A stretch of DNA of 20,000 bases from Dehalococcoidia bacterium. GTDB taxonomy: Bacteria > Chloroflexota > Dehalococcoidia > DSTF01 > RBG-16-68-14. The stretch spans positions 60,348 through 80,347 of the forward strand of contig JBBEBM010000056.1 in the NCBI GenBank assembly GCA_040882355.1, written 5' to 3'. Made by a program: the position numbers and the translations under genes. Every line of letters starts with the position of its first letter. Position 1 is the first letter of the stretch. The notes under the pieces are model-generated. The model did no database searches. It was not told the origin of the DNA and worked only from the letters and a program-made list of their open reading frames with translations. This document shows, in pieces, positions 2,148 through 20,000 of this stretch.

Positions 2148-2993
2148 TCACGCCGTGCCGATGGCTGGCGGAGGGCCGCCGGCGATCATCGCTTCGGCGC
2201 GCTTGCGGATGACGCCGTTGTGCTCCGGATGCGTCAGCACGTAGAACCGCTTCTCTACGATCGCGTCGAACACCTGCTGCGCCACCTGCGCCGGGCTCTG
2301 GCCGGCGCGCAGGAGCTGGCGCACCATGTCCTGCCCGAAGGCCTCCGGCGTGCCGGGCGCGGGCGGCGCCAGCGGCCCGCCCGGCCGGTTGCGGTCCGCG
2401 TCGATGATCTTCGTGTCGGTCGCCGCCGGGCAGAGCACCGATACGCCGATCTTCCCGCCGGAGGTCATCATCAGCTCGTAGTAGAGCGCCTCGGAAAGGC
2501 CGACGATGCCGAACTTGCTCGCGGTGTACGACGCGGCGCCGGCGCCGGGCATCAGCCCTGCCACCGACGCCGTGTTCACGATGTGGCCCTCCTCGCCGCC
2601 CTCCAGCATCACCGGCACGAACGCGCGCACGCCGTTGATCACGCCTCCGAGGTTCACGCCCAGCACCCATCGCCAGTCCTCCAGCGGCTCCTCCCACGAC
2701 AGGCCGCCGCTGCCGACGCCCGCGTTGTTGCAGACGACGTGCACGGCACCGAATGTCTCGACTGTCTTCGCCGCCAGCGCCTGCGCGTCTTCGGCCTTCG
2801 AGACGTCGGTGCGGACGGCGAGCACCGTTGCGCCGGCCTCCCGCATCTCGCATTCGGCGACGTGCAGCGCGGGCTCCTCGACGTCCGCAAGCACAACGCG
2901 CATGCCTTCGGCGGCGAACCGCTCCGCCAGGCCCCGGCCGATGCCGCTCGCAGCGCCGGTCACCACAGCTACCTTGTCCTTGAAGTCTTGCAT
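2148..2993 (-). CDS. SDR family NAD(P)-dependent oxidoreductase
   Basis: TGAASGIG, NNAG, catalytic S...YTASK motifs; GGAGG RBS. Confidence 0.96.
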   Translation of the reverse strand: MQDFKDKVAVVTGAASGIGRGLAERFAAEGMRVVLADVEEPALHVAECEMREAGATVLAVRTDVSKAEDAQALAAKTVETFGAVHVVCNNAGVGSGGLSWEEPLEDWRWVLGVNLGGVINGVRAFVPVMLEGGEEGHIVNTASVAGLMPGAGAASYTASKFGIVGLSEALYYELMMTSGGKIGVSVLCPAATDTKIIDADRNRPGGPLAPPAPGTPEAFGQDMVRQLLRAGQSPAQVAQQVFDAIVEKRFYVLTHPEHNGVIRKRAEAMIAGGPPPAIGTA

Positions 2994-3011
2994 CGTCGCG
3001 CCTCCTCTGGG

Positions 3012-3641
3012 TTAGTTCTGCTTCCTCGTCGCATGCTCGAAGAGCGTTGCGAGCTCGACCGCGTACTCGTCGACGTCGAGGTCCGGGTAGGCGTGGAGCC
3101 GCGGACCGAGCGCATCGATGGCCTGCCGGATCGCGACCGCCATGACGGCCGTCGAGAACGCCCGGAACTCGCCGGTCTCCTGGCCCCGGCGCAGGATGTG
3201 CTGCTCCAGGTCCGAGATCGACTGTTCCAGCCCCTTCACGTCGAACCGCGGTTGCCCTTCCGCCGTCCGGGCGCTGGAGATGATCTCGATCACCGCCTGC
3301 ACGTCGCTGCGGTGGCCGCCGATGAACTCCACGTTGGAAGTGATGAAGGCGCGCAACGCGCCCGAGGCCGTCGTCTCGGCCTGTATCCGCGGCAGCATGA
3401 ACAGAGCGGCCGCCGTGTATACGTCCGTCACTACCTGATCCATCAGCTCGTCCTTGCCCGCGAAGTAGTAGGAGATGACGCTCTTGCTCACGCCCGCCCG
3501 CTTGGCGATCTCGGCCAGCGACGCTCGCTCGTATCCGAGCTCGGCGATCGCCTCAATCGCGCACCCGACGATCTGGGCGCGCCGAGCCGCCTCGATGAAG
3601 GTGGGTTCATCTCGGACGACCGGCTTATCTTTAGGCCGCAT
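3012..3641 (-). CDS. TetR/AcrR family transcriptional regulator
   Basis: HTH GYERASLAEIAKRAGVSKSVISYYFAGKDEL; C-terminal RRGQETGEFR. Confidence 0.95.
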   Translation of the reverse strand: MRPKDKPVVRDEPTFIEAARRAQIVGCAIEAIAELGYERASLAEIAKRAGVSKSVISYYFAGKDELMDQVVTDVYTAAALFMLPRIQAETTASGALRAFITSNVEFIGGHRSDVQAVIEIISSARTAEGQPRFDVKGLEQSISDLEQHILRRGQETGEFRAFSTAVMAVAIRQAIDALGPRLHAYPDLDVDEYAVELATLFEHATRKQN

Positions 3642-3677
3642 GGCCTACTTATAGGCCCTGCGGTCTGCTCCTGTCAA
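3632..3677 (-). promoter_or_regulatory. Putative leaderless sigma70 promoter and TetR operator
   Basis: Minus strand TTGACA-N18-TATAAG-N6-ATG. Overlapping palindromes TAGGCC-gcat-GGCCTA-ctta-TAGGCC (3632-3657). Confidence 0.55.
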
Positions 3678-3733
3678 GAGCGGCCTCCGGCGAACGCCCC
3701 CCAACCCGGCGGGCACGCCGGTCACGAAGGCGG

Positions 3734-3793
3734 GGCGACCCCTCCGGCGGAAGGGGTCGCCTCATCGACCCTGAAGACACGCGGCGGGGTCGA
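3734..3793. terminator. Two adjacent GC-rich hairpins downstream of the ArsR operon (no U-tract)
   Basis: GGCGACCCCT/AGGGGTCGCC (3734-3761) and TCGACCC/GGGTCGA (3765-3793). Confidence 0.5.
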
Positions 3794-3810
3794 GTTCGAC
3801 CGCGGAAGCC

Positions 3811-3933
3811 TCACATGTGCGTCAGGTGCTCCGCCAGGCGATCGAGCGCCCGGTTCGCGCCCTCGATGGCGCTGTACGCCTCCATCGTCCTGTCGCGTTC
3901 TTCTACCGACCGACGCATGGTGAGCGCCCTGCC
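3811..3933 (-). pseudogene. C-terminal remnant of an SRPBCC gene
   Basis: Manual translation GRALTMRRSVEERDRTMEAYSAIEGANRALDRLAEHLTHM* aligns with the end of the 4375-4860 protein (SAEDRDGMLQSGAEQGANESMDRLAEHLAEM). Confidence 0.75.
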
Positions 3934-3946
3934 CGACGCCACAGCC

Positions 3947-4378
3947 TCAACGTCTCGTGCGGCCACGCTTCGCCTCCGTCGGCTTTCGCTGCGACGCCAT
4001 GCGCCGCGGGCGACGTTGCGCGTCAGCCGCCTCGTTTTCCGCGATCCGCGCCTTCACCAGCTTCTTCACGAGCGCGGCCGGGAGCGGCTTGCCAACCGGG
4101 AAGTGGACGGTCCCTTTGGCAGTGTCGTAGGCACTGAGCTCGTCCTTGTGCGCGTCCATCACCAGCGGGCTCATGACGAAGAAGCTGCAGTGGTCCTTGA
4201 ACGCCGCGAAACCCACGAGCCCGCCGTGGTGCTTGAAGGTCGGCACCCGGTAGCTGATCACCTCGACGGCATGGGGCGCGGCCGCCCTGATCCGCCGGCG
4301 AAGCGTCTCCAGCGTGACCCGCGCGTCTTCCGGCAGCGCCGTGAGATAGGCGTCTACGTCGTTCGCCGGTGCGCTCAC
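3947..4378 (-). CDS. DUF1801 / YdhG-like protein
   Basis: DVDAYL...LRRRIRAAAP.AVEVISYRVPTF...FAAFKDHCSFF...KGTVHFP...LP..LVKKLVKARI; GTGA overlap with upstream gene. Confidence 0.9.
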   Translation of the reverse strand: MSAPANDVDAYLTALPEDARVTLETLRRRIRAAAPHAVEVISYRVPTFKHHGGLVGFAAFKDHCSFFVMSPLVMDAHKDELSAYDTAKGTVHFPVGKPLPAALVKKLVKARIAENEAADAQRRPRRMASQRKPTEAKRGRTRR

Positions 4379-4860
4379 CGCTTCATCTCCGCCAGGTGCT
4401 CGGCGAGTCGGTCCATCGATTCGTTGGCGCCTTGCTCCGCCCCCGACTGGAGCATGCCATCGCGGTCCTCGGCGGATTCGAAGACCGACGTGCTTGTGAG
4501 GACCGTCCTGCCGTCCCCCTCCACGAACGTCAGCGTCTCAAGCGATACGTGGCCCGGCATGCCCTCGAACTCGAACGTCTGGACGATCCGGGCCGGCGGG
4601 ACGATCTCGCGGTACTCGCCCCTGAACCCAGACTCCTCACCGTCGCTCTGGCGCTCGACGAAGCGCCAGGCGCCGCCAGGACGGAAGTCCATCTCGCACA
4701 CGGGCAGAGTCGAGCCAAGCCGGCCCCACCAGCGCCGTATGTGCTCTGGCTTGCTGTGCGCCTCGAAGACCAGCTCGCGCGGCGCGTCAAAGACGCGCGT
4801 CATTACGATCTCCAGGTCAGACGGCAGCGTCACCCTGATCGCGTTCTGCTGTTCAACCAT
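4375..4860 (-). CDS. SRPBCC (AHSA1/START-like) family protein
   Basis: EIVMTRVFDAPRELVFEAH..PE..RRWWG, DFRPGGAWRF, GEYREIVPP motifs; AGGAGG RBS. Confidence 0.93.
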   Translation of the reverse strand: MVEQQNAIRVTLPSDLEIVMTRVFDAPRELVFEAHSKPEHIRRWWGRLGSTLPVCEMDFRPGGAWRFVERQSDGEESGFRGEYREIVPPARIVQTFEFEGMPGHVSLETLTFVEGDGRTVLTSTSVFESAEDRDGMLQSGAEQGANESMDRLAEHLAEMKR

Positions 4861-4890
4861 ACTTGTCCTCCTGCAGCGCGGCCCCGCCCG

Positions 4891-5376
4891 CTATGCTCCG
4901 CGGTGCGCCCGCTTCAGCGCCTCGATGTCGATCTTGCTCATGCCGAGCATGGCCTCCATGACCCGTCCCGCCTTCTCGGGGTCCGGGTCCTGCATCAGCT
5001 CGATGAGGACGGCCGGCACGATCTGCCAGGACAGGCCGAACTTGTCTTTCAGCCAGGCGCACTGCGAGGGTTCGCCGCCGTCGGCGGTGAGCTTCTCCCA
5101 TAGTTCATCGACTTCGTCCTGCGACCCGCAGTCCACCACCAACGAGACGGCCTCCGTGAACTTGAATTGCGGGCCGCCGTTCAACGCCATGAACTCCTGC
5201 CCCTCAAGCTGAAACCTCCCCGTGATGACTGTCCCGCTCGGCCCGGGGCCCGCATCGCCGAACCGTGTGAGATCGAGAACCTTCGAGTTCTTGAAGATCG
5301 ACACGTAGAAGTTGATCGCGTCTTCAGCGTTGTTGTCGAACCAGAGGCACGGAGTGATCTTCTGCTTACCAGGCAT
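4891..5376 (-). CDS. VOC family protein (PhnB / 3-dmu-9_3-mt-like)
   Basis: KITPCLWFD..AEDAINFY, FMALNGGPQFKFTEAVS, WLKDKFGLSWQI, MSKIDI. Confidence 0.93.
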   Translation of the reverse strand: MPGKQKITPCLWFDNNAEDAINFYVSIFKNSKVLDLTRFGDAGPGPSGTVITGRFQLEGQEFMALNGGPQFKFTEAVSLVVDCGSQDEVDELWEKLTADGGEPSQCAWLKDKFGLSWQIVPAVLIELMQDPDPEKAGRVMEAMLGMSKIDIEALKRAHRGA

Positions 5377-5469: not shown

Positions 5470-6015
5470 CTAGGCCGTGCGTGAAGCCGGCTGATACGTA
5501 AGCACGACAATGCCCGTGCTGAAGGTCGTCGTGTGCAGGAGCTTCAGTTGGGTGGTGTCGAACCCATCGAAGAGGCGCTGACCGCGCCCGACGAAGACCG
5601 GGAACAGCCAGAGATGATACTCGTCGACGAGCTCGTGCTCCAGCAGCGTACGGTCGAACTCGCCGGTGCCGAACTTCAGGATGTCCTGGCCGGCCTGCTC
5701 TTTCAGCTTCGCTACTTCGGCAGCGACGTCACCGCTGATCACGGTCGCGTTCCACTTCGCCTCCCGCAGCGTGGTCGACGCGACGTACTTGGGGAGGCCA
5801 TTTATCCTGTCGGCGTATTCGTCGCCACTCCTCGATGGCCAGGCCTCGGCGAATCCCTGGTACGTGGCGCGCCCCAGGAGCAGGGCGTCCGCGGCGAACA
5901 GCAGCTTGCGAGCGTAGTTGGCGTGCTCGTTGTTCCAATACGGCGCCCCCCACGCCGCCGGATCGCCGATCACCCCGTCCAGCGTCACGAAGGTGGATTC
6001 CACCAGCTTTCTCAT
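5470..6015 (-). CDS. Dihydrofolate reductase-like (RibD C-terminal) family protein
   Basis: MRKLV...TLDGV, LLLGRATY, KYVASTTL, LVDEYHL..FPV..GRG. Start moved to ATG 6015, which has an AGGAG RBS. Confidence 0.92.
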   Translation of the reverse strand: MRKLVESTFVTLDGVIGDPAAWGAPYWNNEHANYARKLLFAADALLLGRATYQGFAEAWPSRSGDEYADRINGLPKYVASTTLREAKWNATVISGDVAAEVAKLKEQAGQDILKFGTGEFDRTLLEHELVDEYHLWLFPVFVGRGQRLFDGFDTTQLKLLHTTTFSTGIVVLTYQPASRTA

Positions 6016-6116
6016 GTCGGGTCTCCTGTTCCCTGTTGGACCATGTGCTTCCCCTTTCCCGGGTCTCACGACGCGGTCAGCGAGACGCCGCGTGCTTTCT
6101 CGAATCGGTAGTGGCG

Positions 6117-6626
6117 TTACGCCGCCGCCAACACCGCAGCGAGCTTGTCCAAGAACTCGCTCCAGCCCTGGCCGGCGCCATCGCGGTGCTCGCCGGCAGG
6201 CATCCCGGCGTGGCGCAGCGTGAGCTTCGTTTTACCGTCCTGCTCCTCGAACGTCACGGTGACGAGCATCTCCAGGGGAACGTCCCCCTCCATGCCGTAG
6301 TGGCTCGCCGGGACCACGTTGCCGTTCTCGTCCGCGAAGCTGTCGGTGCAGACGATCCGCTCCATCGGCACGATCTCGCGGTAGACGCCGGTACTCCAAA
6401 AGTCCCTGTCGAACTCACTGCCGGCCGGTCCTCGCATGCAGTTGAGATACTTGCCGCCGACGCGGAGGTCGTTCTCGCAGAAGGGGGCCGTGAAGCCCTT
6501 CGGCGCATGCCACTGCTTGATCAGTTCGGGGTCGGTCCACGCCTTCCAGACCAAGTCCCGCGGCGCGTCGAATACACGCTCGATAACGAGCTCCTGCTGC
6601 ATCGCGCTGCGTCTCGCTTCAGCCAT
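6117..6626 (-). CDS. SRPBCC (AHSA1-like) family protein
   Basis: LVIERVFDAPRDLVWKAWTDPE, DLRVGGKY, GKTKLTLRH, GW..FLDKL. Confidence 0.93.
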   Translation of the reverse strand: MAEARRSAMQQELVIERVFDAPRDLVWKAWTDPELIKQWHAPKGFTAPFCENDLRVGGKYLNCMRGPAGSEFDRDFWSTGVYREIVPMERIVCTDSFADENGNVVPASHYGMEGDVPLEMLVTVTFEEQDGKTKLTLRHAGMPAGEHRDGAGQGWSEFLDKLAAVLAAA

Positions 6627-6640
6627 GGTCCTCCTCCTTG

Positions 6641-7009
6641 CTAGTGGGCAGGCTCGAAGAGCTCTACAGCATTGCCCGACGGATCGTCGAGCAGGATCTG
6701 CGAGCCTCCCGGTCCGGTGATGATCTCGTTTCGGAATTGCAGGCCGGCCTCCTTGAGCCTGGCGACTTCGGACTCGAGGTCAGACACCTGCAGTTGGATT
6801 CGATTCCAGCCTCCCGGCACGGGCAGGCTGCCGTCAGGCATCGATCTCCGCCCGGAGCTGGCCTTTCCGCTCAGCAGGAGCCGCACGCCATCGCGGCTCA
6901 CGCTGGCGAAAGCCGGGGAAGCGTCCTGCTCCAACGCGAACCCGAGGTGAGTGGTATAGAAGGCGATCGCGGCAGGCACGTCGTCGATCATGTAGCGTAC
7001 GCTGATCAC
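6641..7009 (-). CDS. VOC / glyoxalase-bleomycin resistance family protein
   Basis: VRYMIDDV.AAIAFYT, GPGGSQILLDDPSGNAVELFEP; GTGA overlap with ArsR. Confidence 0.92.
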   Translation of the reverse strand: MISVRYMIDDVPAAIAFYTTHLGFALEQDASPAFASVSRDGVRLLLSGKASSGRRSMPDGSLPVPGGWNRIQLQVSDLESEVARLKEAGLQFRNEIITGPGGSQILLDDPSGNAVELFEPAH

Positions 7010-7760: not shown

Positions 7761-8522
7761 TCAGAGCCTGGTTTTCGAGTAGACGATCGCGCTTCCTCTG
7801 CGGCCAACCTGCTCGATGAGTCCGCACGTCCTCAGACAGTAGGCCACCTTCTGAGCGATGTCCCGCGGCCGTCCGAGCGCTTGCGCGATGTCCGACGTAA
7901 GGAACTCCTCGGGCAAGTCGTGCGGGATGAAGGCCATGTAGTCGGCGCCGCTCCGAAGCGAAACGATCTCGCTGATCTCGAGAAGCCTCCGTTCGATGGT
8001 CGCCCAACCCCGTCGTCGCCAGCGCTTTCGCCCATCGAAGACTCGCAGCTCCTCCTCCTGAGTCAGAACGACATCCAACTGGAAGTTCTGGTGCGTGATC
8101 AGCTCCGGAAAGCTCACCAGCTCCTCGAAGACGTCGACCACCTTCCTGCGCCGGGGGGACTTGCGGCGTGAAGCCACGCCGCCCTTCTTCTCGGGCAGCT
8201 TCACGATCCAGAGGTCGAGCGGGATCGGGTACACGAGGCGCACCGGCTGCGTCGAGACAAGGCAGCGCATCTTGGTCGCGATGGCTGAGAAGTTCGCCGT
8301 TTGCACTTCAATGATCAAGTCGCCGCGGAGGATGTCGACGACGTAGCCGCCGACCTTCACCTCAACCCTGTCCCCGGGCTCGATGTACCGTTCCTTGAGG
8401 GACGAGTGGAGGTGGCCTTCGTTGAGTGTGCCGATGGAGGTTCCGATGCCGGCTACTCCTGCCCGCGCAGGTCGACCCTTCGCGCAGCTGCGCCCGGTCA
8501 ATGCGACGTTAGTCGCACTCAT
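7761..8522 (-). CDS. Hypothetical protein, putative PD-(D/E)xK-like nuclease with C-terminal winged helix; start uncertain
   Basis: E..LH..LK...E...VDI.....IEVQ motif; C-terminal FLTSDIAQALGRPRDIAQKVAYCLRTCGLIEQVGRRG. Confidence 0.7.
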   Translation of the reverse strand: MSATNVALTGRSCAKGRPARAGVAGIGTSIGTLNEGHLHSSLKERYIEPGDRVEVKVGGYVVDILRGDLIIEVQTANFSAIATKMRCLVSTQPVRLVYPIPLDLWIVKLPEKKGGVASRRKSPRRRKVVDVFEELVSFPELITHQNFQLDVVLTQEEELRVFDGRKRWRRRGWATIERRLLEISEIVSLRSGADYMAFIPHDLPEEFLTSDIAQALGRPRDIAQKVAYCLRTCGLIEQVGRRGSAIVYSKTRL

Positions 8523-8696
8523 GCTAGCTGGGCGCCGCCGTTTGCGGCCAGGTGGCACTGATTCGAGACAGCGTGGCCGAAGGTCGAAGCCGGGTCGCGC
8601 ACCGGGACCTGCCCGGCAGCGCGGAAGCCGGCCTTGCGCGGAGCGCCGTACAACCCGCATGGCTGAGCCCCTAGCCTCGATAGGTTGTTCGACTGG

Positions 8697-10618: not shown

Positions 10619-11938
10619 ATGCGAGTTCTGCTGATCGGCGGCGGAGCCAGGGAGCATGCGATAGGCGAAGCCTTGGTGCGTGCGGGTGCCGAGTTATTTG
10701 TCGTTGCTCACAACGAGAACCCAGGCCTGGCTGAAATCGCCAAGGGGTTCCTTGACGAGGACGAAAAGAATGTAGCGCCAATCGTTGCGTGGGCTGCGGG
10801 ACAGCGAATTGGGATGGCGGTGATAGGCCTAGAAGATCCGCTGAAGGTCGGGCTCCCCGATGATCTGGCTGAGGCTGGCATACCAACCGTTGGGCCAACC
10901 ATGGCAGCCGCCCGCCTCGAAACGTCCAAACTCTTCGCCAGGGAGTTGATGCGTCGCCATGGAATCGGAGGCCAGGTCGACTACCACTACTTCACTGACG
11001 CCGACGAGCTGAGAGGGTTTCTGGCTACCACGGATAGACGCTTCGCACTGAAGCCAGTCGGTTTGACGGCCGGCAAAGGTGTGAGGGTGATGGGCATTCA
11101 GCTGCACTCGGCGGAGGAAGCCATCGAGTATGGCGAGAAGGTGATCAAGGAGCGCATCGGTGACGCTGCAGGTGTTGTTGTCGAAGAAGCGATCGAAGGT
11201 GAAGAATTCACTCTGCAAGCCTTTGTCGACGGCGAAGCAGTCATTCCAATGCCGCTGGTACGTGACTACAAGCGTGCCTACGAGGGTGACCTCGGTCCCA
11301 ACACGGGGAGCATGGGTTCCTACTCACAGGTTGACGGACTACTGCCATTCGTTACGGGGCGGGAGCGGGATGAGGCGTTAGCGATCCTGCGTGGCGTAGT
11401 TGCAGCGCTGAGAGACGAAGGGACTGTCTATCGCGGCATTCTCTATGGCCAATTCATGATGACTCAGGCTGGCGTAAAGGTCATAGAATTTAATGCACGG
11501 TTTGGAGACCCAGAGGCGCTGAATGTACTACCTCTGCTCGAGAATAACTTCCTGGAAGTCTGTGAAGGGATAATCAGCGGTGGTCTGAGTCAATACGAGA
11601 TGCGCTTCTCGCCGAAGGCAACGGTCTGCAAGTACATAACGCCTCCGAATTACCCTGACAATCCAGAGATAGTGCCGATTCGACTGGACCGCGCCGGTAT
11701 CGAGGCTGAGGGGGTGAAGCTGTACTTTGCGAAGGTCCAGGAGAAGGGCGAGCAACTGCTGACAACACCTTCGCGCTTTGCGGCTCTGGTGGGAGTGGCG
11801 GATAGCATCCCTGAAGCTGAGGAGGCAGTGGAGAGAGCCCTTAAGCACGTAGAGGGCCGCTACCACGTCCGGCACGACATCGGGACAGCAGCACTCCTAG
11901 GGGCCCGGCCAAGCACTGGCGCTGTCTCAGTGAATTAG
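10619..11938 (+). CDS. purD: Phosphoribosylamine--glycine ligase (GAR synthetase), archaeal-type sequence features
   Basis: GGGAREHAI, AARLETSKLFAR, KPVGLTAGKGV, DYKRAYEGDLGPNTGSMGSYS, EFNARFGDPE, RHDIG; GGAGG RBS. Confidence 0.93.
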   Translation: MRVLLIGGGAREHAIGEALVRAGAELFVVAHNENPGLAEIAKGFLDEDEKNVAPIVAWAAGQRIGMAVIGLEDPLKVGLPDDLAEAGIPTVGPTMAAARLETSKLFARELMRRHGIGGQVDYHYFTDADELRGFLATTDRRFALKPVGLTAGKGVRVMGIQLHSAEEAIEYGEKVIKERIGDAAGVVVEEAIEGEEFTLQAFVDGEAVIPMPLVRDYKRAYEGDLGPNTGSMGSYSQVDGLLPFVTGRERDEALAILRGVVAALRDEGTVYRGILYGQFMMTQAGVKVIEFNARFGDPEALNVLPLLENNFLEVCEGIISGGLSQYEMRFSPKATVCKYITPPNYPDNPEIVPIRLDRAGIEAEGVKLYFAKVQEKGEQLLTTPSRFAALVGVADSIPEAEEAVERALKHVEGRYHVRHDIGTAALLGARPSTGAVSVN

Positions 11939-12814: not shown

Positions 12815-15586
12815 CTACTCCAGCCGCACCGAGTCGCTCACGCCCACGTCCTCGAGGATCTGTCGCAGATCGGCCTCGAGCTGGTCGGCGAGCTTGGCGT
12901 CCACGACGACGGACAGCTCCACGCCAACGCGCAGCTCAACGGCTGATCGCAGCTTCGGCAGGATCTTCGTTCCGAAGCGGTTCCACACCTCCGGGCTGAT
13001 GTTCCCGACGAGGCGGATGGTCCGCGTACCTTCCGCTGCGGCAGGCTCCTGCTCGCCAGCTACCGGGCTAGCTTCCTCCATGGTTGTCTCGCCCGGTGCA
13101 GGCGCGAGAGGGAGCGCTGGAGGCGCACCCCCCTGCCCCTTCAGCGCGACCGCCTTCGCTTTCGTCAGCAAGAAGACGCCGGCCTCGAACGCCACCTCAT
13201 CGGTCGCGATGGCCTGTTCGAACCAGACGCGGTCATACGTCCCGTCGGAGTGCTGACTCGACGCGAGACCGAATTCGCCGCGCTCGACGAACTCCGCGAC
13301 CTTCGTTCGCAGGACGGCGTCCGGGTCGAGCAGCCGCGTGAAGCTCCCATTCAGGAACGCCTGCCGGAGGCTGGAGAGGGGCCACGCTCCCGAATCGACA
13401 AGAGCGGGGGGCCAGTTCCGGTCAATGTAGCCGGCGCCAACCGACTCGTTTAGGAGACCTCCCGACTTGAGCGCCGTGACCATCCGACCGCACAGGGTCT
13501 CCGAGGCACTCGCGTGCCCGGCGCCAAGATCGATGACCTTCAGGCCGTCCGCTTCATTCTTGTCCAGCAGCACGACATACCGATACCCCGCCCAGACTTC
13601 GTCCTTCGCCGCTTCTTCGGCGTCCCTGACTTTCGCCTGAATCTCCGTGAGCTCGGACCTCTCGAACTCCGAGCCGAGCGTTCCCTCCTGCACCTCGCGC
13701 TGGACGCGTCGCCAGGCCAGCAGCAGCTCCACCTTGTCGCGCAGATCGCGGCCCGTCCTTCGCACGCACCAGACGAGCGCCGCCGGGTAAAGACGGTCCG
13801 AATTGCCGCGCTGGCGCGTCCACTCCGCGATGCGTTCGCGCAGAGCGCTTGCTCCGTTCCACTCCCAGTCAGGTTCGGCGACAACGATCGTCAGGCGCGG
13901 CGAGTCCTGGATCTCCGAGCTGTCTTTCGGGAAGGTCACCAGCGACAGCGTGGCGCCGCGGTCGAACTCCTTCTCGATGATGCGCCGCATCTCCGGGCGG
14001 ACATCTGCCTCCTCGTCCAGTGAGGCGCGGCGGTCGCTCACGACCTTGCTCAACTTTGGCTTGTAGCCGATGCGGTAGCCGTCGGAGCCAACCTTGCGAA
14101 TGAAGAAGGAACGCGAATCGAGTGCGCCGGCCGCAGTGTCGATGCTCGTCGTGTCGATCCCAGGCTCACCGAGGGCGAAGCGCAGCTCCGGGAGGTGAGC
14201 GGTCTTGTCCGCCTGCCCGCCTGACGACTCGAACAAAATCGACGTGGCCACGCGCCGATGAATGTCGCGCAGCGGACCCCTGGGCGTATCGGCGTCCAGA
14301 GCGCGAGAGTGAGCCGTCTCGCCTGCGATGTCAGCGTCGATGGCAGCGACGAGGCGGGACTCGCCCAACTGCCCCAGCACGATCCCCCTGAACTCAGGAG
14401 CCTCAAGGGGCGCCGAGCCGAGGGTGAGCAGCGGTTCGGCCCGTACCGATGTGAAGCCGTCTTTGTACGCCCGGGCCACCCACTGCGCAAGCATGGCGAG
14501 CGTGCCGCGCGTCTGCTGGTACTGCGGCAGGGCTTGCCATTTGCGCTGGAAGACGGAGAGCGTGGCCGGGTGGAACGGGTAGCACCGCTCGAAGCGATCA
14601 CGCAGGAACTCTCGCGCCTTCTTCTCCGTAGCCGATGAATCAATCGCCGTCCACTCCGGCGGCAACTGCGCGCGCCGTTCAAAGCACCACGACGCGTACT
14701 CCGCAGCCACCTTCGCGCGCACTGCGCCGTCACCGAGGCTCTCGAACAGCCGGCGACGCACAACCTCGCTGATCTCGCTCTCGTCGTTGACGATGAGGTC
14801 CTTTGCGACCCGGCGAACGATCTTCGTGATCCGCTCCTGCCACTCCATGTCCCAGTCAGCCATCTCGACCTGACTGCGTGGGAGGCTGATCACCACTGCG
14901 GTCGATGGCGTGCCGGTGGCGGCCACAGTGAGGTTCTGCAAGAAGTCGCGGAACGACTCCGCCCGGTCGCGGTAACGGCTGAGGAAGTTCAGCACCTCAT
15001 CGCAGAGGATGAGGACGCGACCTCCGGCCGCCTCGAAGAGCCGCCCGATCGCCTCGGTGCCTGGCGCAGTCGTCTTCGCGGTCTCGCCGAGCGCCTCGAC
15101 GCCAGCCGGGCCCGCAAGCTGGCGAGCAACATCGATCCACGGCGTCTCGCGGCCCTCGGCCGGGTCCCACGCGTTGCCGACGAACGCCGCGACCTTGGCC
15201 GCAGGCACGCTGTCGAGTTGGGCGCTCTCCAGTAGGCTTGCGACGCCGGGCAGCGCGTTCGCGTCAGCGCCGAGCCGCACGAGGTGGTAGAGCGTCGTGA
15301 GCGTGTGCGTCTTGCCGCCGCCGAACTGCGTAATCAATGTGAGGACCGGGGCGGTGTCCGCCGTCTCGCCCGCGAGTCGCCGAAGCGCCATCCCGGCGTG
15401 CTCCCGCAGCGCTCGCGTGAAGACGGTGCGCTCGAAGAACAGGCGCGGGTCCTTGTAGTCGTCGGGCGCCGTGCCTGCGATCACTTGCTCCAGCGCGATC
15501 GCGAACTCATCGGGGTTGAACGACCGCCCTTCGCGCACCTCCTTGCGCGGCGTGACGACCTTCCACCAGGGTTGCAGCGCAGCCAT
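12815..15586 (-). CDS. DUF499 domain AAA+ ATPase (COG1483-like, BrxC/PglY-related)
   Basis: W..VVTPR.EV, EFA..L, Y.DP..FF..T, Walker A QFGGGKTH, Walker B VLILCDE, EVVRRRLF, YPFHP, QQTRGTL; GGAGG RBS. Confidence 0.93.
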   Translation of the reverse strand: MAALQPWWKVVTPRKEVREGRSFNPDEFAIALEQVIAGTAPDDYKDPRLFFERTVFTRALREHAGMALRRLAGETADTAPVLTLITQFGGGKTHTLTTLYHLVRLGADANALPGVASLLESAQLDSVPAAKVAAFVGNAWDPAEGRETPWIDVARQLAGPAGVEALGETAKTTAPGTEAIGRLFEAAGGRVLILCDEVLNFLSRYRDRAESFRDFLQNLTVAATGTPSTAVVISLPRSQVEMADWDMEWQERITKIVRRVAKDLIVNDESEISEVVRRRLFESLGDGAVRAKVAAEYASWCFERRAQLPPEWTAIDSSATEKKAREFLRDRFERCYPFHPATLSVFQRKWQALPQYQQTRGTLAMLAQWVARAYKDGFTSVRAEPLLTLGSAPLEAPEFRGIVLGQLGESRLVAAIDADIAGETAHSRALDADTPRGPLRDIHRRVATSILFESSGGQADKTAHLPELRFALGEPGIDTTSIDTAAGALDSRSFFIRKVGSDGYRIGYKPKLSKVVSDRRASLDEEADVRPEMRRIIEKEFDRGATLSLVTFPKDSSEIQDSPRLTIVVAEPDWEWNGASALRERIAEWTRQRGNSDRLYPAALVWCVRRTGRDLRDKVELLLAWRRVQREVQEGTLGSEFERSELTEIQAKVRDAEEAAKDEVWAGYRYVVLLDKNEADGLKVIDLGAGHASASETLCGRMVTALKSGGLLNESVGAGYIDRNWPPALVDSGAWPLSSLRQAFLNGSFTRLLDPDAVLRTKVAEFVERGEFGLASSQHSDGTYDRVWFEQAIATDEVAFEAGVFLLTKAKAVALKGQGGAPPALPLAPAPGETTMEEASPVAGEQEPAAAEGTRTIRLVGNISPEVWNRFGTKILPKLRSAVELRVGVELSVVVDAKLADQLEADLRQILEDVGVSDSVRLE

Positions 15587-15606: not shown

Positions 15607-18603
15607 TCACTTTGGCATCGCCAGCAGCATCGCGTCCAGCAGGCGCTTCTCTTCGGCGTTTCGTGGATAGAGCGCCGACAGCGCGTTCGCCAGGCGCAAG
15701 AAGTCCGGGCCGCGCTCCTGCTCCGTCGCCAGCAGCGTCCGGAGCGCGTTCGCGCGACCGCTCGCCTGTAGCAGCATCGCCGCGTGGACGCGGTCGAGCG
15801 TCGTCGCGTCGAGCCGATTGCCGATTGCTTCGTCAGTCGCCGTGACGACGACCTTGCGCCGCCCGCGCCTCGGCTTCGGCTCGCCCTGCATCTCCAGGAA
15901 GAGCGAGAGCTGGGCCGATGGCTCCGCCTCCAGCCGGTCGGCGACGGCCTGGGCGCCGTCCTCGCCGAAGAGGCGCTTCGCGCGCTCAGCGACGGGCAGC
16001 AGCCGCACGACGCCCTTGGTCGTCTCGATGATGCGCCCCTCCCAGTCGTCCAGGTGGATGCCCAACGGCTGGGCGAAGCGGCGCACCACGTCGTAGACCA
16101 GCGTGTAGCCCTTCGGCTTGCGCCGTCGGGCGCTGCTCTCCTCCTCCTCGGCATCCTCTTCAACGGCGCCGTCTTCGTCCGGGCCCGCGTTTGCCGCGGC
16201 GCCGTTGGCCTCCTGGCCGCCATTCGTGCTCTGGAGCGTCCAGAGGAAGAGTGAGGTCAGCCTGGCGTCCTCCTCCAGGGCACCGGCGTCGTCCTCTGAG
16301 CCGAGCACCTGGCGCAGTGCCGCCCGGCCGACGACCTCCCAGACGTAGGCCAGGTAGCCGCGCTCGTGTGGCTCGACAGCCTCCGGGTCGCCGCCGAGCG
16401 GGATCTCCCGGTCCTCGGCGTCGACGACCTTGGAGTAGCGGCTGTAGACCTCCAGCGCCGGGCCGATGCAGGCGAAGACGAGGTCCGCGCCGCGTACGCC
16501 CTCGCCCTGCAAGCGCTCCATCCAGTCCCCGACGCGCCGCGGCAGCTCCCTGAGCACATCCGCCCATTCGCCTATTGGCGCGTCCCCGGGCCGTGGGCGG
16601 CAGACGAGATGTACGGATGTGGCCAGTGCCGCTGAGGCACGTGCACGGAGTCTCGACCCCATTTCCGTGGCAATCGGCCACGATGCGGTAACAGTCCAGC
16701 CCCCAGAAACTGCGCCAGAAAGCAACGCCTCCCATCCCTCAGTTGTCTTGTGGGCGAATACAACGGCGCCTAGGCCGTCTTCCGTTAGTACGCGCCGTCC
16801 TTCTGCAAATGCCTCTGCCATGGCGTGTTCGAAAAACGCTCGATCTTTTGGTGCACCGTTGAGCTCCTTGCTCTCGTCTTGGACGATTTCTTGAAGCTTT
16901 GGTGCCAGCGAATTTGTGGCGTCGAATGGATCGCTAACGAACGTTCCCGGAGGAAAAGCCCGCCGAATCCAGACAAGGAAGAAGTCTGACAGATCAGCAT
17001 AAGGAACAGCATCATAGTAAGGGGGGTCGGTGAACCATACATCAGCTGACTCATCTGGCAGCGGAATCCGCCGGGCATCGCCTGGTTGAACGGTACCTGC
17101 CGTCGCTACTGCTGCGATCATCGAAACTGGTGCGACAGATCGACGAATTGAGCTGTCAATAGTCCCGCTGGATTCGCCAATTGGAACTGCTTCGGCGAAG
17201 TCCCACTTCATGGGAAGGGCAAAACGAGTCATCATATGCGCAGGGATCTCCGCATTGGCTGATGGTTGCCAAGTCGACAAGCTGCTATTCATGTCGACGA
17301 TCTTGCTAAACGCCAAGCTCAGGAATGCGCGGAGATCGTCGTCCTGCTCTCGAATGAGGCCGGCAATAGTCAAAAGCGCCAACTTTTGGCGGATGGTGGT
17401 CAGGTCTCCCCAATTGGTCATGCCGTAGCGTTGGACGCGAAAGCCCAGGGTACCTACCGGAGGTAGGGGTTCGTTCGGCATGTCGATCCCCTCCTTTGCG
17501 AGGTGGGGCAGGCGGGAGGCAAGTTCCTCAGCCGCGCGAAGGACGGGCACATAGTCGCCGTCCGTAGCTATCCGGTACAGGCGGCCCTTGGTGTCAGAAC
17601 GCAGAGCCGCGACGGCCATCAGGCGAGCTCCGCCCTTTCGCTTTCCGGCGTTGTCGAACACTACGTCAGCTCCCCCGTGTTGTTCTGTGAGTTGAGCGCG
17701 CACGCGGTCAGGTCCGAGTACGATTCCGCACGCTGGGCAAGTTGCCCGACCTCCGCTCACCGTTCCTCTCGGCACATCGGAAGCGCTTGTTGGTTCGAGT
17801 ATCTCGAACTCAACCTGAGGCAGGCCAGACTGTGAACGAGTCACGAAATAGCGAAACGCGCGCTTTCGGTGCGGCTTCTTTGACAACCAACAGGATCTTA
17901 CGAGTGGTATTTCCGCGCCACATCCTGGTGTCTCGCAGCTAACTGTCCTAGCCCATATGTACGCAATTGGTTGGCTTCCATCGGGATCGGGTGGGTAGAA
18001 CGATCGGAGCTCTCTCTCTGCACGATCTTTAACCTGCATGCCCGCCGAAAGGACTCTCGCTGAAATGGCGTTACCGTCGCGCGGTATCTGTGACACGACA
18101 ACTCTGAGGATCATGTTCGCGACGGGGTTCAGATCAGCGGCAAAGGCGTCACAACCAAGCCGGAGGGCCTCGAGCGGGATCGAGCCGCCGCCGGCGAACG
18201 GGTCGACGACGAGGGGCGGCTCTTCGGGATGCGCTGCGCGCACGAGCGCCCGCCCGGCTTCAAGGTAGAGTTGGTTCGCAGCAAGGTCCCAGTTGGCGAA
18301 GTCCCCGGTGAATTTCAGTAGCGCGTCGCGCAGGTCATTGTCGGAAGGTCCAATCTTCTGAATGGCGGCCAGCGCGTCGCGCGCCCCGGTCTTGAACTCC
18401 GGCGGGCAGTGCTCGTCACATGGGTCAGGGAGGAGTAATGCGAGCAAGACGGCTCGGCTCGATGCCGTGGGCCGTGCGGCTGGCCAGATGTGGATCTTCG
18501 GAATGTGGCCACGTCGGGATTCCTTCTCCGCGACTGCATGCTTGGAGACGACGGCGATGGGAAAGTCGACCTCGGCCAGGCGCTTGCACTCGCGGGGGAT
18601 CAT
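15607..18603 (-). CDS. DUF1156 domain adenine-specific DNA methyltransferase with Zn ribbon (COG1743-like)
   Basis: KRLAEVDFPI N-terminus, motif I DPFAGGGSIPLEALRLG, YIWARTVSCETPGC...CPAC, motif IV TDPPYYD, VVFAHKTTEGW. Start set at ATG 18603 to avoid overlap with the upstream gene. Confidence 0.93.
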   Translation of the reverse strand: MIPRECKRLAEVDFPIAVVSKHAVAEKESRRGHIPKIHIWPAARPTASSRAVLLALLLPDPCDEHCPPEFKTGARDALAAIQKIGPSDNDLRDALLKFTGDFANWDLAANQLYLEAGRALVRAAHPEEPPLVVDPFAGGGSIPLEALRLGCDAFAADLNPVANMILRVVVSQIPRDGNAISARVLSAGMQVKDRAERELRSFYPPDPDGSQPIAYIWARTVSCETPGCGAEIPLVRSCWLSKKPHRKRAFRYFVTRSQSGLPQVEFEILEPTSASDVPRGTVSGGRATCPACGIVLGPDRVRAQLTEQHGGADVVFDNAGKRKGGARLMAVAALRSDTKGRLYRIATDGDYVPVLRAAEELASRLPHLAKEGIDMPNEPLPPVGTLGFRVQRYGMTNWGDLTTIRQKLALLTIAGLIREQDDDLRAFLSLAFSKIVDMNSSLSTWQPSANAEIPAHMMTRFALPMKWDFAEAVPIGESSGTIDSSIRRSVAPVSMIAAVATAGTVQPGDARRIPLPDESADVWFTDPPYYDAVPYADLSDFFLVWIRRAFPPGTFVSDPFDATNSLAPKLQEIVQDESKELNGAPKDRAFFEHAMAEAFAEGRRVLTEDGLGAVVFAHKTTEGWEALLSGAVSGGWTVTASWPIATEMGSRLRARASAALATSVHLVCRPRPGDAPIGEWADVLRELPRRVGDWMERLQGEGVRGADLVFACIGPALEVYSRYSKVVDAEDREIPLGGDPEAVEPHERGYLAYVWEVVGRAALRQVLGSEDDAGALEEDARLTSLFLWTLQSTNGGQEANGAAANAGPDEDGAVEEDAEEEESSARRRKPKGYTLVYDVVRRFAQPLGIHLDDWEGRIIETTKGVVRLLPVAERAKRLFGEDGAQAVADRLEAEPSAQLSLFLEMQGEPKPRRGRRKVVVTATDEAIGNRLDATTLDRVHAAMLLQASGRANALRTLLATEQERGPDFLRLANALSALYPRNAEEKRLLDAMLLAMPK

Positions 18604-18619
18604 GGCTGGCCTCTGGTGC

Positions 18620-19435
18620 CTAGCCCCATGTGACAGGCCATTCCAGCTCATGGGGCGTACCACTCAGGTCGTCCCAGCGAGTCGTGACAGTTATCGGATG
18701 CTCACCGCGCCGACGCGCTACTTTGATTACGAGGCGCTGCGATGCGTGAAGTGTTGCTATGGGGAAGGGATTGGGGCCGACAAGTTCCGGCAGTTGCTGG
18801 TTTTCAGCTGATGTCCAAGCCCAATCTGCGTTCCGGACGTCACCTTCTCCATCGTTCTGGAAGATCAAGAAGTACTCATGGCCAGTCGATGTGCCGCTAC
18901 TCGGCCTATACTCTGTGCGAGTCTCGAAGCTAAGCCTGCCCGGCCGCGCAACCGCCAGGCCAAACTCGTGGGCGAAGCCTGGCGAGCGAGCGAAGCGTTC
19001 GCCAGCCTGGCGTCGAGACAGGTATGTGGTCGACCGAGACGACCTTGCCCACGCTGTGCCCTTGTAGAAGTGCGGGGCACGTGGACTGGGCGCCACTTCG
19101 ATCACTAGACAGCCAGCACCGGACGGCTCGATCGGAACTGGCGCCGTGACGGTTGGGTTAAGAGGCTCATCCAGGCTACGGCCAACGAGATCGACTCTCT
19201 CAGCAGCGCCGTTCAGGTCAAGAGGCAGGAGACTGGTCGCCCGGCCATCGTCTTCCACGATCCCATAGATGATAATGCCTCCGTCTGTATTCGCCATAGC
19301 TGCGAGTGCCTTTGCGAGCGAGTCGTTCTGACCGCTTGGTGGCATTTGCTGCTTGAATTCTAGGCGCGAACTCTCTTCTAGCTGTTCGTGGACGATACGC
19401 TCTATGTCTTCCCTGGTGCTTGGTGGCCAGCTCAC
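18620..19435 (-). CDS. AlbA_2/Schlafen domain protein with predicted C-terminal Ig-like domain
   Basis: EESSRLEFK, LAKALAAMANTDGGIIIYGIVED, IEVAPSPRAPH...AWARS. Beta-rich C-terminus YFLIFQNDGEGDVRN...ITVTTRWDD. GTGA overlap with upstream gene. Confidence 0.88.
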   Translation of the reverse strand: MSWPPSTREDIERIVHEQLEESSRLEFKQQMPPSGQNDSLAKALAAMANTDGGIIIYGIVEDDGRATSLLPLDLNGAAERVDLVGRSLDEPLNPTVTAPVPIEPSGAGCLVIEVAPSPRAPHFYKGTAWARSSRSTTYLSRRQAGERFARSPGFAHEFGLAVARPGRLSFETRTEYRPSSGTSTGHEYFLIFQNDGEGDVRNADWAWTSAENQQLPELVGPNPFPIATLHASQRLVIKVARRRGEHPITVTTRWDDLSGTPHELEWPVTWG

Positions 19436-20000
19436 TGAAGGTCACCTCCAGCGCCAGCGTCATAGGTGGCGCGCCGCTCGCGGACCTGGGTAGGTTGCTT
19501 CGCCGCGTCGACGGTCAGATAGTAGTGCGCCACCTTGACCACCTCATGCCAGGGCAGGCGGGCCGGGTCAGCGATCGGCTCCTCCAGGCGCGGCACGGCG
19601 TGGCAGTTGGTGACGACGTAGAGCCAGTAGCAATCGCGCCGGTCCTCGGCGACGCGGCGCTCGTTGGGGGTGAGCAGGATCGTGCCGGTGGCCGCGCCGA
19701 TCCCCTTCACCTCGATCAGCCGCAGATCGCCCGTGCTCAGGTCGAGGCTGGTGACGTCGTAGCCCAGGTTCTTCTCACTGACGTCGTAGACCTTGCGACC
19801 GAGCGCGGCCTCTCGCTCCATGACGATGCGCATCGCCGTTGCCTCCACCTCGGCGTCAGGCCGCAGGCGGCGCACCTCCGGCGCATCGGCGGCGGGGTGC
19901 GGGAGGACGAGCACGGACACGATGCGCTCGACGCCCTGGAGGGTGAGCGAGCGCTGCTGTTCGAGCTCGCGGCGGCGGCGGTCGCGGCGGGCGAGCAGGT
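19432..20000 (-). CDS. C-terminal part of a DUF3883 (PD-(D/E)xK) domain protein, probably an SNF2 helicase-DUF3883 fusion; 5' end outside window
   Basis: EVEATAM..VM..E...DVS..NLGYDVTS...IEVKG...LTPNE...YWLYVV. Frame open to the window edge (LLARRDRRRRELEQQRSL, coiled coil). The helicase part is inferred from gene context and is not visible. Confidence 0.85.
   Translation of the reverse strand, partial: LLARRDRRRRELEQQRSLTLQGVERIVSVLVLPHPAADAPEVRRLRPDAEVEATAMRIVMEREAALGRKVYDVSEKNLGYDVTSLDLSTGDLRLIEVKGIGAATGTILLTPNERRVAEDRRDCYWLYVVTNCHAVPRLEEPIADPARLPWHEVVKVAHYYLTVDAAKQPTQVRERRATYDAGAGGDLQ

Follow-up and report, generated by a model that had tools for sequence, protein, structure and literature searches.

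A Schlafen gene with an Ig-like C-terminal domain in the hmaA-hmaB cargo slot of a Dehalococcoidia Hma operon: a candidate RNA-level layer of defense

The window analyzed here is a 20,000-nucleotide (nt) stretch of DNA from a Dehalococcoidia bacterium (GenBank assembly GCA_040882355.1, contig JBBEBM010000056.1, positions 60,348 to 80,347), and close to its end, at 18620..19435 on the reverse strand, it carries a gene for a 271-residue protein (P0001) in which an N-terminal Schlafen/AlbA_2 nuclease-fold domain is followed by a C-terminal Ig-like β-sandwich. This Schlafen-Ig gene sits between hmaA and hmaB of what profile matches identify as an Hma system (HmaA-HmaB-HmaC), otherwise called a Type-1 BREX-related system, and because both the operon and its use of this slot for cargo are known, we regard the gene as a variant of an arrangement already described. 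In our proposal, the gene would be horizontally acquired cargo, co-transcribed and translationally coupled within the hmaA-hmaB slot, and its product would be a self-contained sensor-effector that combines a metal-dependent Schlafen endoribonuclease domain with an Ig-like sensor. By analogy with RorSlfn5, the Schlafen-Ig fusion of Raoultella ornithinolytica, the sandwich would bind a phage protein and thereby switch on a dimeric or oligomeric nuclease, which would cleave tRNA or another RNA, with translation arrest and a lower phage yield as the outcome. On balance, we consider a RorSlfn5-like mechanism of this kind, with tRNA as the probable target, to be a little likelier right than wrong. 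Alongside the DNA-level HmaABC, in which no HEPN RNase domain could be detected on the DUF499 ATPase, the Schlafen-Ig protein would then constitute an independent, RNA-level second layer.

All features of the operon are given in window positions and lie on the reverse strand. The open reading frame (ORF) of the Schlafen-Ig gene, according to the ORF list and its translation, runs from a GTG at 19435-19433 to a TAG at 18622-18620, with the GTG overlapping the TGA (19434-19432) of the upstream hmaA (NOV_C/DUF3883) to give the sequence GTGA. As read from the sequence, this coupling site (19432..19449) also includes a GGAGG at 19449-19445 and a 9-nt spacer. Use of the GTG start is supported because 10 full-length relatives begin at the same point of the alignment. 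On the other side, the stop codon is separated from the hmaB ATG (18603) by a spacer of 16 nt (18604..18619). No promoter- or terminator-like site was reported in this spacer or at the borders of the gene, and no flanking direct repeats bracket it, those present being short and at chance level. An earlier sequence-only reading of the window had described a 271-residue gene coupled through GTGA and placed 16 bp from the methyltransferase start, and both the coordinates and the sequence agree with that description.

Residues 1-155 (18971..19435) make up the Schlafen/AlbA_2 nuclease-fold domain, as judged by structure and profile matches. In Pfam, the protein matches SLFN_AlbA_2 (PF04326) at 50.2 bits, where the cut-off is 25.3 (E-value of 4.4e-13, residues 21-137), no other Pfam family being matched. 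The AlphaFold2 (AF2) model of the protein, based on a 36-sequence alignment, has a mean predicted local distance difference test score (pLDDT) of 93.1 and a predicted template modeling score (pTM) of 0.70. When residues 1-155 were compared with known structures in VIA-align, the matches included 3lmm_A (Z score of 11.3, root-mean-square deviation (rmsd) of 3.2 with 135 residues aligned), 2kyy (titled 'RecG-related'; Z of 9.7), and human SLFN11 (7zel_A; Z of 9.7, rmsd of 3.8 with 124 residues aligned), in the last of which residues 1-159 of the model fall upon residues 191-353 of the chain. Also matched were SLFN12 and SLFN5 (Z of 9.2 each) and the DNA-binding domain of SAMD9 (Z of 8.8). Foldseek likewise gave the Schlafen catalytic-lobe fold at a probability of 1.00, and a profile search of the PDB matched the C-lobe of rat Slfn13 (5yd0), SLFN5, SLFN14, and CbCash. 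These fold and family matches bear out the Schlafen/AlbA_2 assignment with an intact ExxxxExK motif that had been made from the letters.

That motif occupies codons 21-28 (E21-SSRL-E26-F-K28; 19352..19375), and in the profile search its three charged residues, E21, E26, and K28, align with 'ESASIEFK' in the N-domain of rat Slfn13 (5yd0). Within the 36 family sequences, E21 and K28 are each found in 36/36, and the position of E26 holds glutamate or aspartate in 35/36. In the published account of RorSlfn5, the corresponding catalytic motifs, Ex4ExK in SLFN11 and Ex4DxK in RorSlfn5 (E15/D20), are required for tRNA cleavage and defense (PMC13056530). At the level of the alignment, there is also a candidate for the third acidic site of the metal center, where E61/D62 ('YGIVEDD') line up with 'FGVDDES' of 5yd0. 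The third metal-site acid in rat Slfn13 we take to be D248, which by our count is the latter of the two aspartates in the 'FGVDD' of 5yd0.

Here, an alternative outside of defense has to be considered, namely that the protein is a housekeeping or stress AlbA_2 protein (an RNase gated by stress, for example, or a regulator that binds nucleic acid) whose gene was inserted into the Hma operon by chance and contributes nothing to phage resistance, which we rate as rather unlikely. The structural matches give it some footing, as the AlbA_2 fold also resembles DNA binders (the SAMD9 domain and the 'RecG-related' 2kyy). Against this, the near-invariance of Ex4[E/D]xK favors an enzyme over a mere binder, and neither a helix-turn-helix (HTH) nor another regulator domain was detected in the protein by Pfam.

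The remainder of the protein, residues 163-271 (18623..18949), is a putative sensor domain, for which the AF2 model has seven strands lying within residues 168-268. VIA-align placed it closest to Ig-like β-sandwiches, including TRAPPII (7u05_B; Z of 8.3), the alpha-adaptin ear (1w80_A; Z of 7.8), GAE domains, PapD-like chaperones, an alpha-2-macroglobulin MG domain (4u48_A; Z of 6.5), and an integrin ectodomain (7usm_A; Z of 5.9), and Foldseek agrees. The β-rich, Ig-like C-terminus of about 105 residues that the sequence-only reading had called is thus seen in the model as well. Since Z scores of 5.8-8.3 are middling, and fall in a range that is common for a mere shared arrangement, we limit the claim to a β-sandwich of the Ig-like class, rather than kinship with the RorSlfn5 sensor. 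A search of the ESM Atlas with this domain returned unnamed clusters at a best score of 0.81, which is below the level counted as more than a lead. More conspicuously, the two ends of the protein have diverged to different degrees, with the mean pairwise identity in the 36 sequences being 44.5% for the nuclease domain, 55.5% for residues 136-162, and 26.9% for the β-sandwich. Such faster divergence of the C-terminal domain fits a sensor engaged in an arms race, which also argues against a housekeeping role, and the fast-evolving sandwich is likely the sensor of the protein.

Residues 136-162 (18950..19030), containing helices 141-150 and 154-157, are the most conserved segment of the protein and are predicted to form the core of a homodimer interface. 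In fact, three runs of a two-copy prediction gave ipSAE values of 0.47, 0.44, and 0.50, whereas the best control gave 0.00. These runs have at least 61% of their contacts in common, with a partner pLDDT of at least 81, and the predicted interface (residues 89-90, 121-128, and 138-162) falls on family-invariant residues. Of the proteins with known structures, 20 of 30 homo-pairs attain this ipSAE mark, as does one of 23 solved as single chains, counts that apply roughly here, as the prediction used an alignment of our own. Moreover, Schlafen complexes are already in the PDB, and a memory effect in the prediction is accordingly possible. On the strength of these models, the conserved helical segment probably makes the Schlafen-Ig protein a homodimer or higher oligomer.

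Upstream of the Schlafen-Ig gene lie the last 188 codons of hmaA (19432..19998), which encode the NOV_C/DUF3883 nuclease domain of the PD-(D/E)xK type (Pfam NOV_C, E-value of 4.4e-22). This fragment matches the PADLOC model for HmaA (E-value of 2.1e-15) at profile positions 993-1130 of 1176. The contig ends where the window does (contig position 80347), so hmaA is cut and its Snf2 helicase part is not on the contig. No convincing piece of the remaining hmaA was found elsewhere in the assembly (3.33 Mb in 82 contigs, 93.9% complete, 67.4% GC), and a weak HmaA match on another contig (C52; E-value of 2.6e-5) was rejected as the missing part. Downstream, hmaB (15607..18603) encodes a DUF1156 N6-adenine DNA methyltransferase (PADLOC HmaB, E-value of 8.9e-92; Pfam DUF1156, E-value of 9.5e-11), with the ATG at 18603 opening a typical DUF1156 N-terminus (M21, 'MIPRECKRLAEVDFPI'). 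It is followed by hmaC (12815..15586), which encodes a DUF499 ATPase that matches the PADLOC HmaC model over residues 3-778 (E-value of 5.2e-91), Pfam DUF499 (E-value of 2.7e-12), and, at 91 bits, which is under the model's 1200-bit cut-off, NCBIfam DUF499_antiphage (E-value of 4.5e-26). No HEPN domain was detected in HmaC by Pfam, which at an E-value of 0.1 or less returned DUF499 alone. By these profile matches, the DUF499-DUF1156-DUF3883 operon that had been called restriction-like from the sequence is an Hma system. Such systems are defined in PADLOC and are attributed to Payne et al. 2021 by PMC11232893, which also reports that HmaA of Halomonas alone defends against T4 via its NOV_C nickase and that HmaA homologs sometimes occur without hmaB and hmaC.

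In base composition, the Schlafen-Ig gene stands apart from the genome, with a G+C content (GC) of 0.596 and a third-codon-position GC (GC3) of 0.618 as against a genome GC of 0.674. The lower GC noted earlier is thereby confirmed, a recount at 19261-19320 reproducing the hand count of 32/60. For the neighboring genes, GC3 is 0.889 in the hmaA C-terminus, 0.835 in hmaC, and 0.712 in hmaB. Along the Schlafen-Ig gene itself, GC3 is between 0.57 and 0.72, as compared with 0.88-0.93 in the hmaA C-terminus, and the low-GC3 tract extends past the gene into codons 1-660 of hmaB, spanning from about 16620 to 19435. Within hmaB, codons 1-660 (16620-18603) have a GC3 of 0.40-0.77, codons 181-660 being noted for a low value, and the final third of the gene a GC3 of 0.85-0.97. 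From the shared tract, the Schlafen-Ig gene and this part of hmaB may have arrived together. Comparison with two Hma operons from the same order (genomes G025 and G020) weakens the case for co-acquisition, because an internal GC3 dip is found in their hmaB genes as well, there beside different slot genes. The dip in hmaB may reflect exchange of the methylase's variable target-recognition part between operons. Elsewhere in the window, purD (10619-11938, forward strand; GARS_N, GARS_A, and GARS_C) has a GC3 of 0.63, which is below that of most of its neighbors, and GC3 in the source genome is therefore heterogeneous even among housekeeping genes.

The question of joint arrival bears on a further alternative, modeled on PrrC, an RNase that its EcoprrI partner, on which it depends, keeps masked and that is freed by Stp of phage T4. 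As a guard of this type, the Schlafen-Ig protein would be kept latent on an Hma protein, the methylase for instance, and released or activated once a phage has put Hma out of action with an anti-restriction factor, a scheme that we find quite unlikely; its companion assumption, that the Ig-like domain reads the state of Hma and not a phage structural protein, we doubt to the same extent. Speaking for a guard are the location of the gene inside the operon, its coupling to hmaA and its 16-nt distance from hmaB, the low-GC3 tract it shares with hmaB codons 1-660, and an HmaC in which no HEPN domain was detected. Moreover, PrrC is named as a precedent in PMC13056530, and Schlafen genes of other architecture recur in the same slot. 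The GC3 dips in G025 and G020 count on the other side, as do the contents of the slot in other operons and the distribution of the family, to which we now turn.

According to PMC11232893, insertions are present in about 66.5% of hma systems, the hmaA-hmaB gap is a hotspot for them, and Halomonas has a Septu system in that gap. Term counts in its supplement, which are for hmaA neighborhoods at large and not specific to the slot, include AlbA_2 65 times and DUF3800 23 times, and one example is TTHA1019 of Thermus thermophilus, which adjoins hmaA. For our own survey, 401 genomes were sampled from the same phylum, 91 of which had an HmaB by the PADLOC model (E-value of 1e-30 or less), and 1.5 kb upstream was inspected for each of the 30 best-scoring loci, a set that is not random. 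In 14 of these 30 loci, the NOV_C end of HmaA lies immediately next to HmaB. In two others (genomes G295 and G146), and as confirmed on extended loci, a gene combining AlbA_2 with HATPase_c_4 lies between hmaA and hmaB, encoding proteins of 547 residues (L125, with a 4-nt overlap with hmaA) and 647 residues (L126, with an HTH). One further locus has a probable partial slot Schlafen, with a partial HATPase_c_4 ORF at the contig end. Among the other 13, the content is UPF0175, DarT plus Macro, MNT (two loci), a TIR-like gene, an AAA_23 ATPase, DUF1294, or ORFs of unknown kind, unless the sequence is too short to tell. Here, either a DarT-Macro (DarTG-type) pair (L112:4380-5763, genome G155) or a CAP12/Pycsar-type TIR-like gene (L120:187-1437, genome G087) is located directly upstream of hmaB. 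Several kinds of toxin-type cargo thus gather at this position.

In the slot of the two same-order operons, G025 has a 234-residue DUF3800 gene (L092:10117-10821; PADLOC candidate PDC-M04A, E-value of 9.2e-26) and G020 a 226-residue gene (L093:6008-6688) with no match in Pfam, PADLOC, or NCBIfam. Both are tightly packed and similar in size, but they are not related to one another, nor is either related to the Schlafen-Ig gene, and in all four comparison Hma operons the slot genes have a lower GC3 than the core genes. Between the Schlafen-Ig protein and the two confirmed slot Schlafen-HATPase_c_4 proteins, the identity is 26-34% over the AlbA_2 domain, and because it is so low, we take the recruitments of Schlafen proteins to the slot as independent, which argues against a conserved partnership of the kind a guard calls for. 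The sequence-only reading had itself put forward a survey of the gene slot between helicase and DUF1156 gene, and what came of it does not help the idea of a dedicated guard: the cargo in the other operons is unrelated. By tblastn, no relative of the Schlafen-Ig protein was found in the 30 HmaB loci.

The same survey bears upon whether the protein is an accessory subunit of Hma that acts on DNA, with AlbA_2 binding or cutting nucleic acid within the restriction complex, in target recognition for example. Operon position and coupling would suit such a subunit, and accessory parts do vary, as some HmaA homologs lack hmaB and hmaC as companions (PMC11232893); some Schlafen domains also bind DNA, going by the titles of PDB entries 7cux and 6rr9. 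With nothing between hmaA and hmaB in 14 of the 30 operons, and with a family that occurs without Hma, we judge this role to be extremely improbable.

As for the family at large, HMMER recovered 31 sequences at an E-value of 1e-30 or less from among 1.84 billion cluster representatives, and most of these are near full-length, with 256-300 residues. Many more proteins, of about 400 residues, share residues 3-150 alone with the Schlafen-Ig protein. The nearest named records are from metagenome-assembled genomes of Dehalococcoidia/Chloroflexota. Eleven other full-length loci were located by pattern-based scans, which may miss members, with a set of 185,579 species genomes giving one of them (L001), metagenomes nine (L045-L053), and the phylum sample one (G017). 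No Hma genes were found at any of the 11, of which seven have at least 3.4 kb and four less than 1.8 kb, and when all 77 loci of the collection were searched by tblastn, neither HmaA nor HmaB nor HmaC had a match. In the case of G017, whose genome is 97% complete, a full-length member (E-value of 6.7e-95) occurs in a genome with no HmaB match. One member (L053) has no Pfam match in its ORF as cut, yet residues 3-270 were matched by tblastn.

Because the family occurs on its own and the content of the slot is interchangeable, the guard model is weakened. The two-layer system that the sequence-only reading had envisaged therefore divides in two: a second, RNA-level layer stays plausible, whereas a fail-safe wired to Hma is unsupported, given relatives without Hma and unrelated cargo in the slot. 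A bolder form of the guard idea would have the hmaA-hmaB gap as a dedicated back-up socket, the Schlafen-Ig protein as a true guard of Hma that arrived as a cassette with the variable two-thirds of hmaB, and the Ig-like domain as a monitor of either the methylase or its target-recognition module, or else of a phage inhibitor of Hma. This we hold to be very unlikely, but if true, RNA cleavage would follow only upon sabotage of DNA restriction, making for a Schlafen analog of PrrC-EcoprrI in a BREX-related system.

Several observations weigh against the RorSlfn5-like mechanism that we prefer. To begin with the protein, it matches no PADLOC or NCBIfam model, its Ig-like matches have the middling Z scores given above, and the third acidic position is not strict, with E61 in 30/36 sequences (Q, A, or V in the other six) and aspartate or glutamate at position 62 also in 30/36. 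The geometry of the active site, too, is as assessed from alignments. RorSlfn5 has a mass of 43.1 kDa and is a hexamer by measurement (PMC13056530), whereas the protein here has 271 residues with one sandwich and is modeled as a dimer. In terms of context, all seven family loci with at least 3.4 kb sit among housekeeping genes, with neighbors that comprise an HflX-like GTPase, an aminotransferase, ProB, a ProA-like dehydrogenase, a CDF transporter, valS, and nuo genes. Among 25 neighbor ORFs, PADLOC gave three generic matches (a mad2 methyltransferase, a desaturase, and a weak LeoBC GTPase), and a scan of viral contigs with a 10-row alignment found no relatives. Outside of its source operon, then, the family lacks guilt-by-association support for defense, and RNase activity, substrate, trigger, and defense contribution are all points that we infer for the Schlafen-Ig protein.

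On closer view of these neighborhoods, a ProA-like aldehyde dehydrogenase is found downstream of the family member, together with a CDF transporter, in two loci (L046:171-2730 and L053:595-3133), ProB is upstream of it in a third (L049:3-2761), and the G017 member is directly upstream of valS, with nuo genes (L138:4718-8443). Surroundings of the proline-biosynthesis type, or with valS, are an odd, non-defense neighborhood for a putative tRNase.

Because the other contexts of the family are housekeeping ones, with no convincing PADLOC neighbors at the seven loci with usable flanks, a role outside of defense keeps some weight, and according to PMC13056530, defense genes are not close by for 30.4% of the Schlafen genes of prokaryotes. 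Still, single-gene defense systems need no defense neighbors, and the gene here resides in a defense-operon slot that elsewhere holds DarTG, MNT, TIR, and Schlafen-HATPase_c_4 genes. Taken with the conserved motif and the rapidly diverging C-terminal domain, these points leave us with the phage-triggered RNase as the reading that we would put forward for the Schlafen-Ig protein.

Other observations were made along the contig. A second SLFN_AlbA_2 gene (C56:43572-43958, locus L080; Pfam E-value of 1.5e-09) is situated about 17 kb before the start of the window, just downstream of a DegT/DnrJ/EryC1 aminotransferase gene. As its long ORF overlaps the aminotransferase frame, the true protein probably has about 340 residues, beginning with the AlbA_2 domain and ending in a C-terminus that carries no annotation. 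At the opposite end of the window from the Hma genes, positions 2-1624 (forward strand) encode a large protein with RCC1 repeats, of a β-propeller-like kind, that runs off the window start (Pfam WD40_RLD, E-value of 2.6e-63), and several long ORFs that come after it (2220-3923, 3815-5212, 5835-6644, and 7761-8660) have no Pfam match.

With respect to what was already known, the operon, its insertion hotspot, Schlafen back-up effectors, and Schlafen-Ig tRNases are all published. The sequence-only reading knew of no description of the combination, a claim that goes too far, since Schlafen back-ups in BREX-related loci (PMC12839542) and the hmaA-hmaB hotspot (PMC11232893) are both in print, the former, like RorSlfn5, since 2026. 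For a short Schlafen-Ig gene in the hmaA-hmaB slot itself, no description was found in the literature consulted, although the supplements to PMC12839542 may list such cases. What the present gene adds to the cargo of Hma and BREX-related systems is a small, uncharacterised Schlafen family (the 31 cluster representatives). Together with the slot Schlafen-HATPase_c_4 genes, it indicates that distant Schlafens were recruited independently to one position of a restriction-like operon, and such independent recruitments support the view, already in print, that suicide effectors acting on RNA serve as a back-up to defense at the DNA level. Moreover, having one nuclease domain, a dimerization helix, and a β-sandwich within 271 residues, the protein would offer a compact model for an Ig-gated Schlafen nuclease.

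Compared with other Hma systems, the operon here is alike in having a DUF499 ATPase, a DUF1156 methylase, and the end of a NOV_C nuclease gene on one strand. It differs in its Schlafen-Ig cargo and in an HmaC with no sign of the HEPN fusion, which, in the account of PMC12839542, where Hma is the Type-1 DUF499-centered BREX-related system, is known in 1370 of 2446 taxa. Those HEPN-DUF499 fusions (the Ava_2192 family; PMC3710099, PMC12839542) share with the Schlafen-Ig gene the predicted provision of a back-up endoRNase on the same restriction-like system. There, however, a HEPN fold is fused to the ATPase, whereas here a Schlafen fold is encoded by a separate gene and has a putative sensor of its own. 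The likeness to PrrC of EcoprrI (type Ic) lies in having the gene for a latent RNase inside an operon of the restriction-modification type, as an RNA-level fail-safe. In contrast, PrrC is not a Schlafen protein, the Schlafen-Ig family occurs without Hma, and no homology to PrrC was found, SLFN_AlbA_2 being the sole family match in Pfam, PADLOC, and NCBIfam.

Closer still are Schlafen RNases fused to a minimal histidine kinase and a winged HTH (wHTH), for which PMC12839542 describes a back-up role, closely linked to the core loci of BREX and BREX-related systems, in at least 1017 taxa. Like the Schlafen-Ig gene, theirs lie within or next to a DUF499/DUF1156/Snf2 core and are proposed to be a suicidal back-up layer, but they carry HATPase_c_4 and wHTH modules in place of an Ig-like sandwich. 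For the sandwich, the counterpart is RorSlfn5 (pSlfn5), which binds the tail assembly chaperone of phage T5 and cleaves the tRNA anticodon arm, and whose account in PMC13056530 bears out the earlier mention of Schlafen-Ig fusions as tRNases triggered by phage proteins. In the pSlfn5 proteins, the Ig domain diverges faster than the nuclease, and Ig swaps transfer the trigger specificity (PMC13056530). RorSlfn5 was assayed as a stand-alone gene, whereas the copy here is inside an Hma operon, and the two are compared by architecture. On that basis, they have in common an N-terminal Ex4[E/D]xK nuclease (E15/D20 in RorSlfn5, E21/E26 here), a C-terminal Ig-like sandwich, a single-gene unit, an oligomeric state (here a predicted one), and a sensor that diverges faster than its nuclease. 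[quoted passage not shown]

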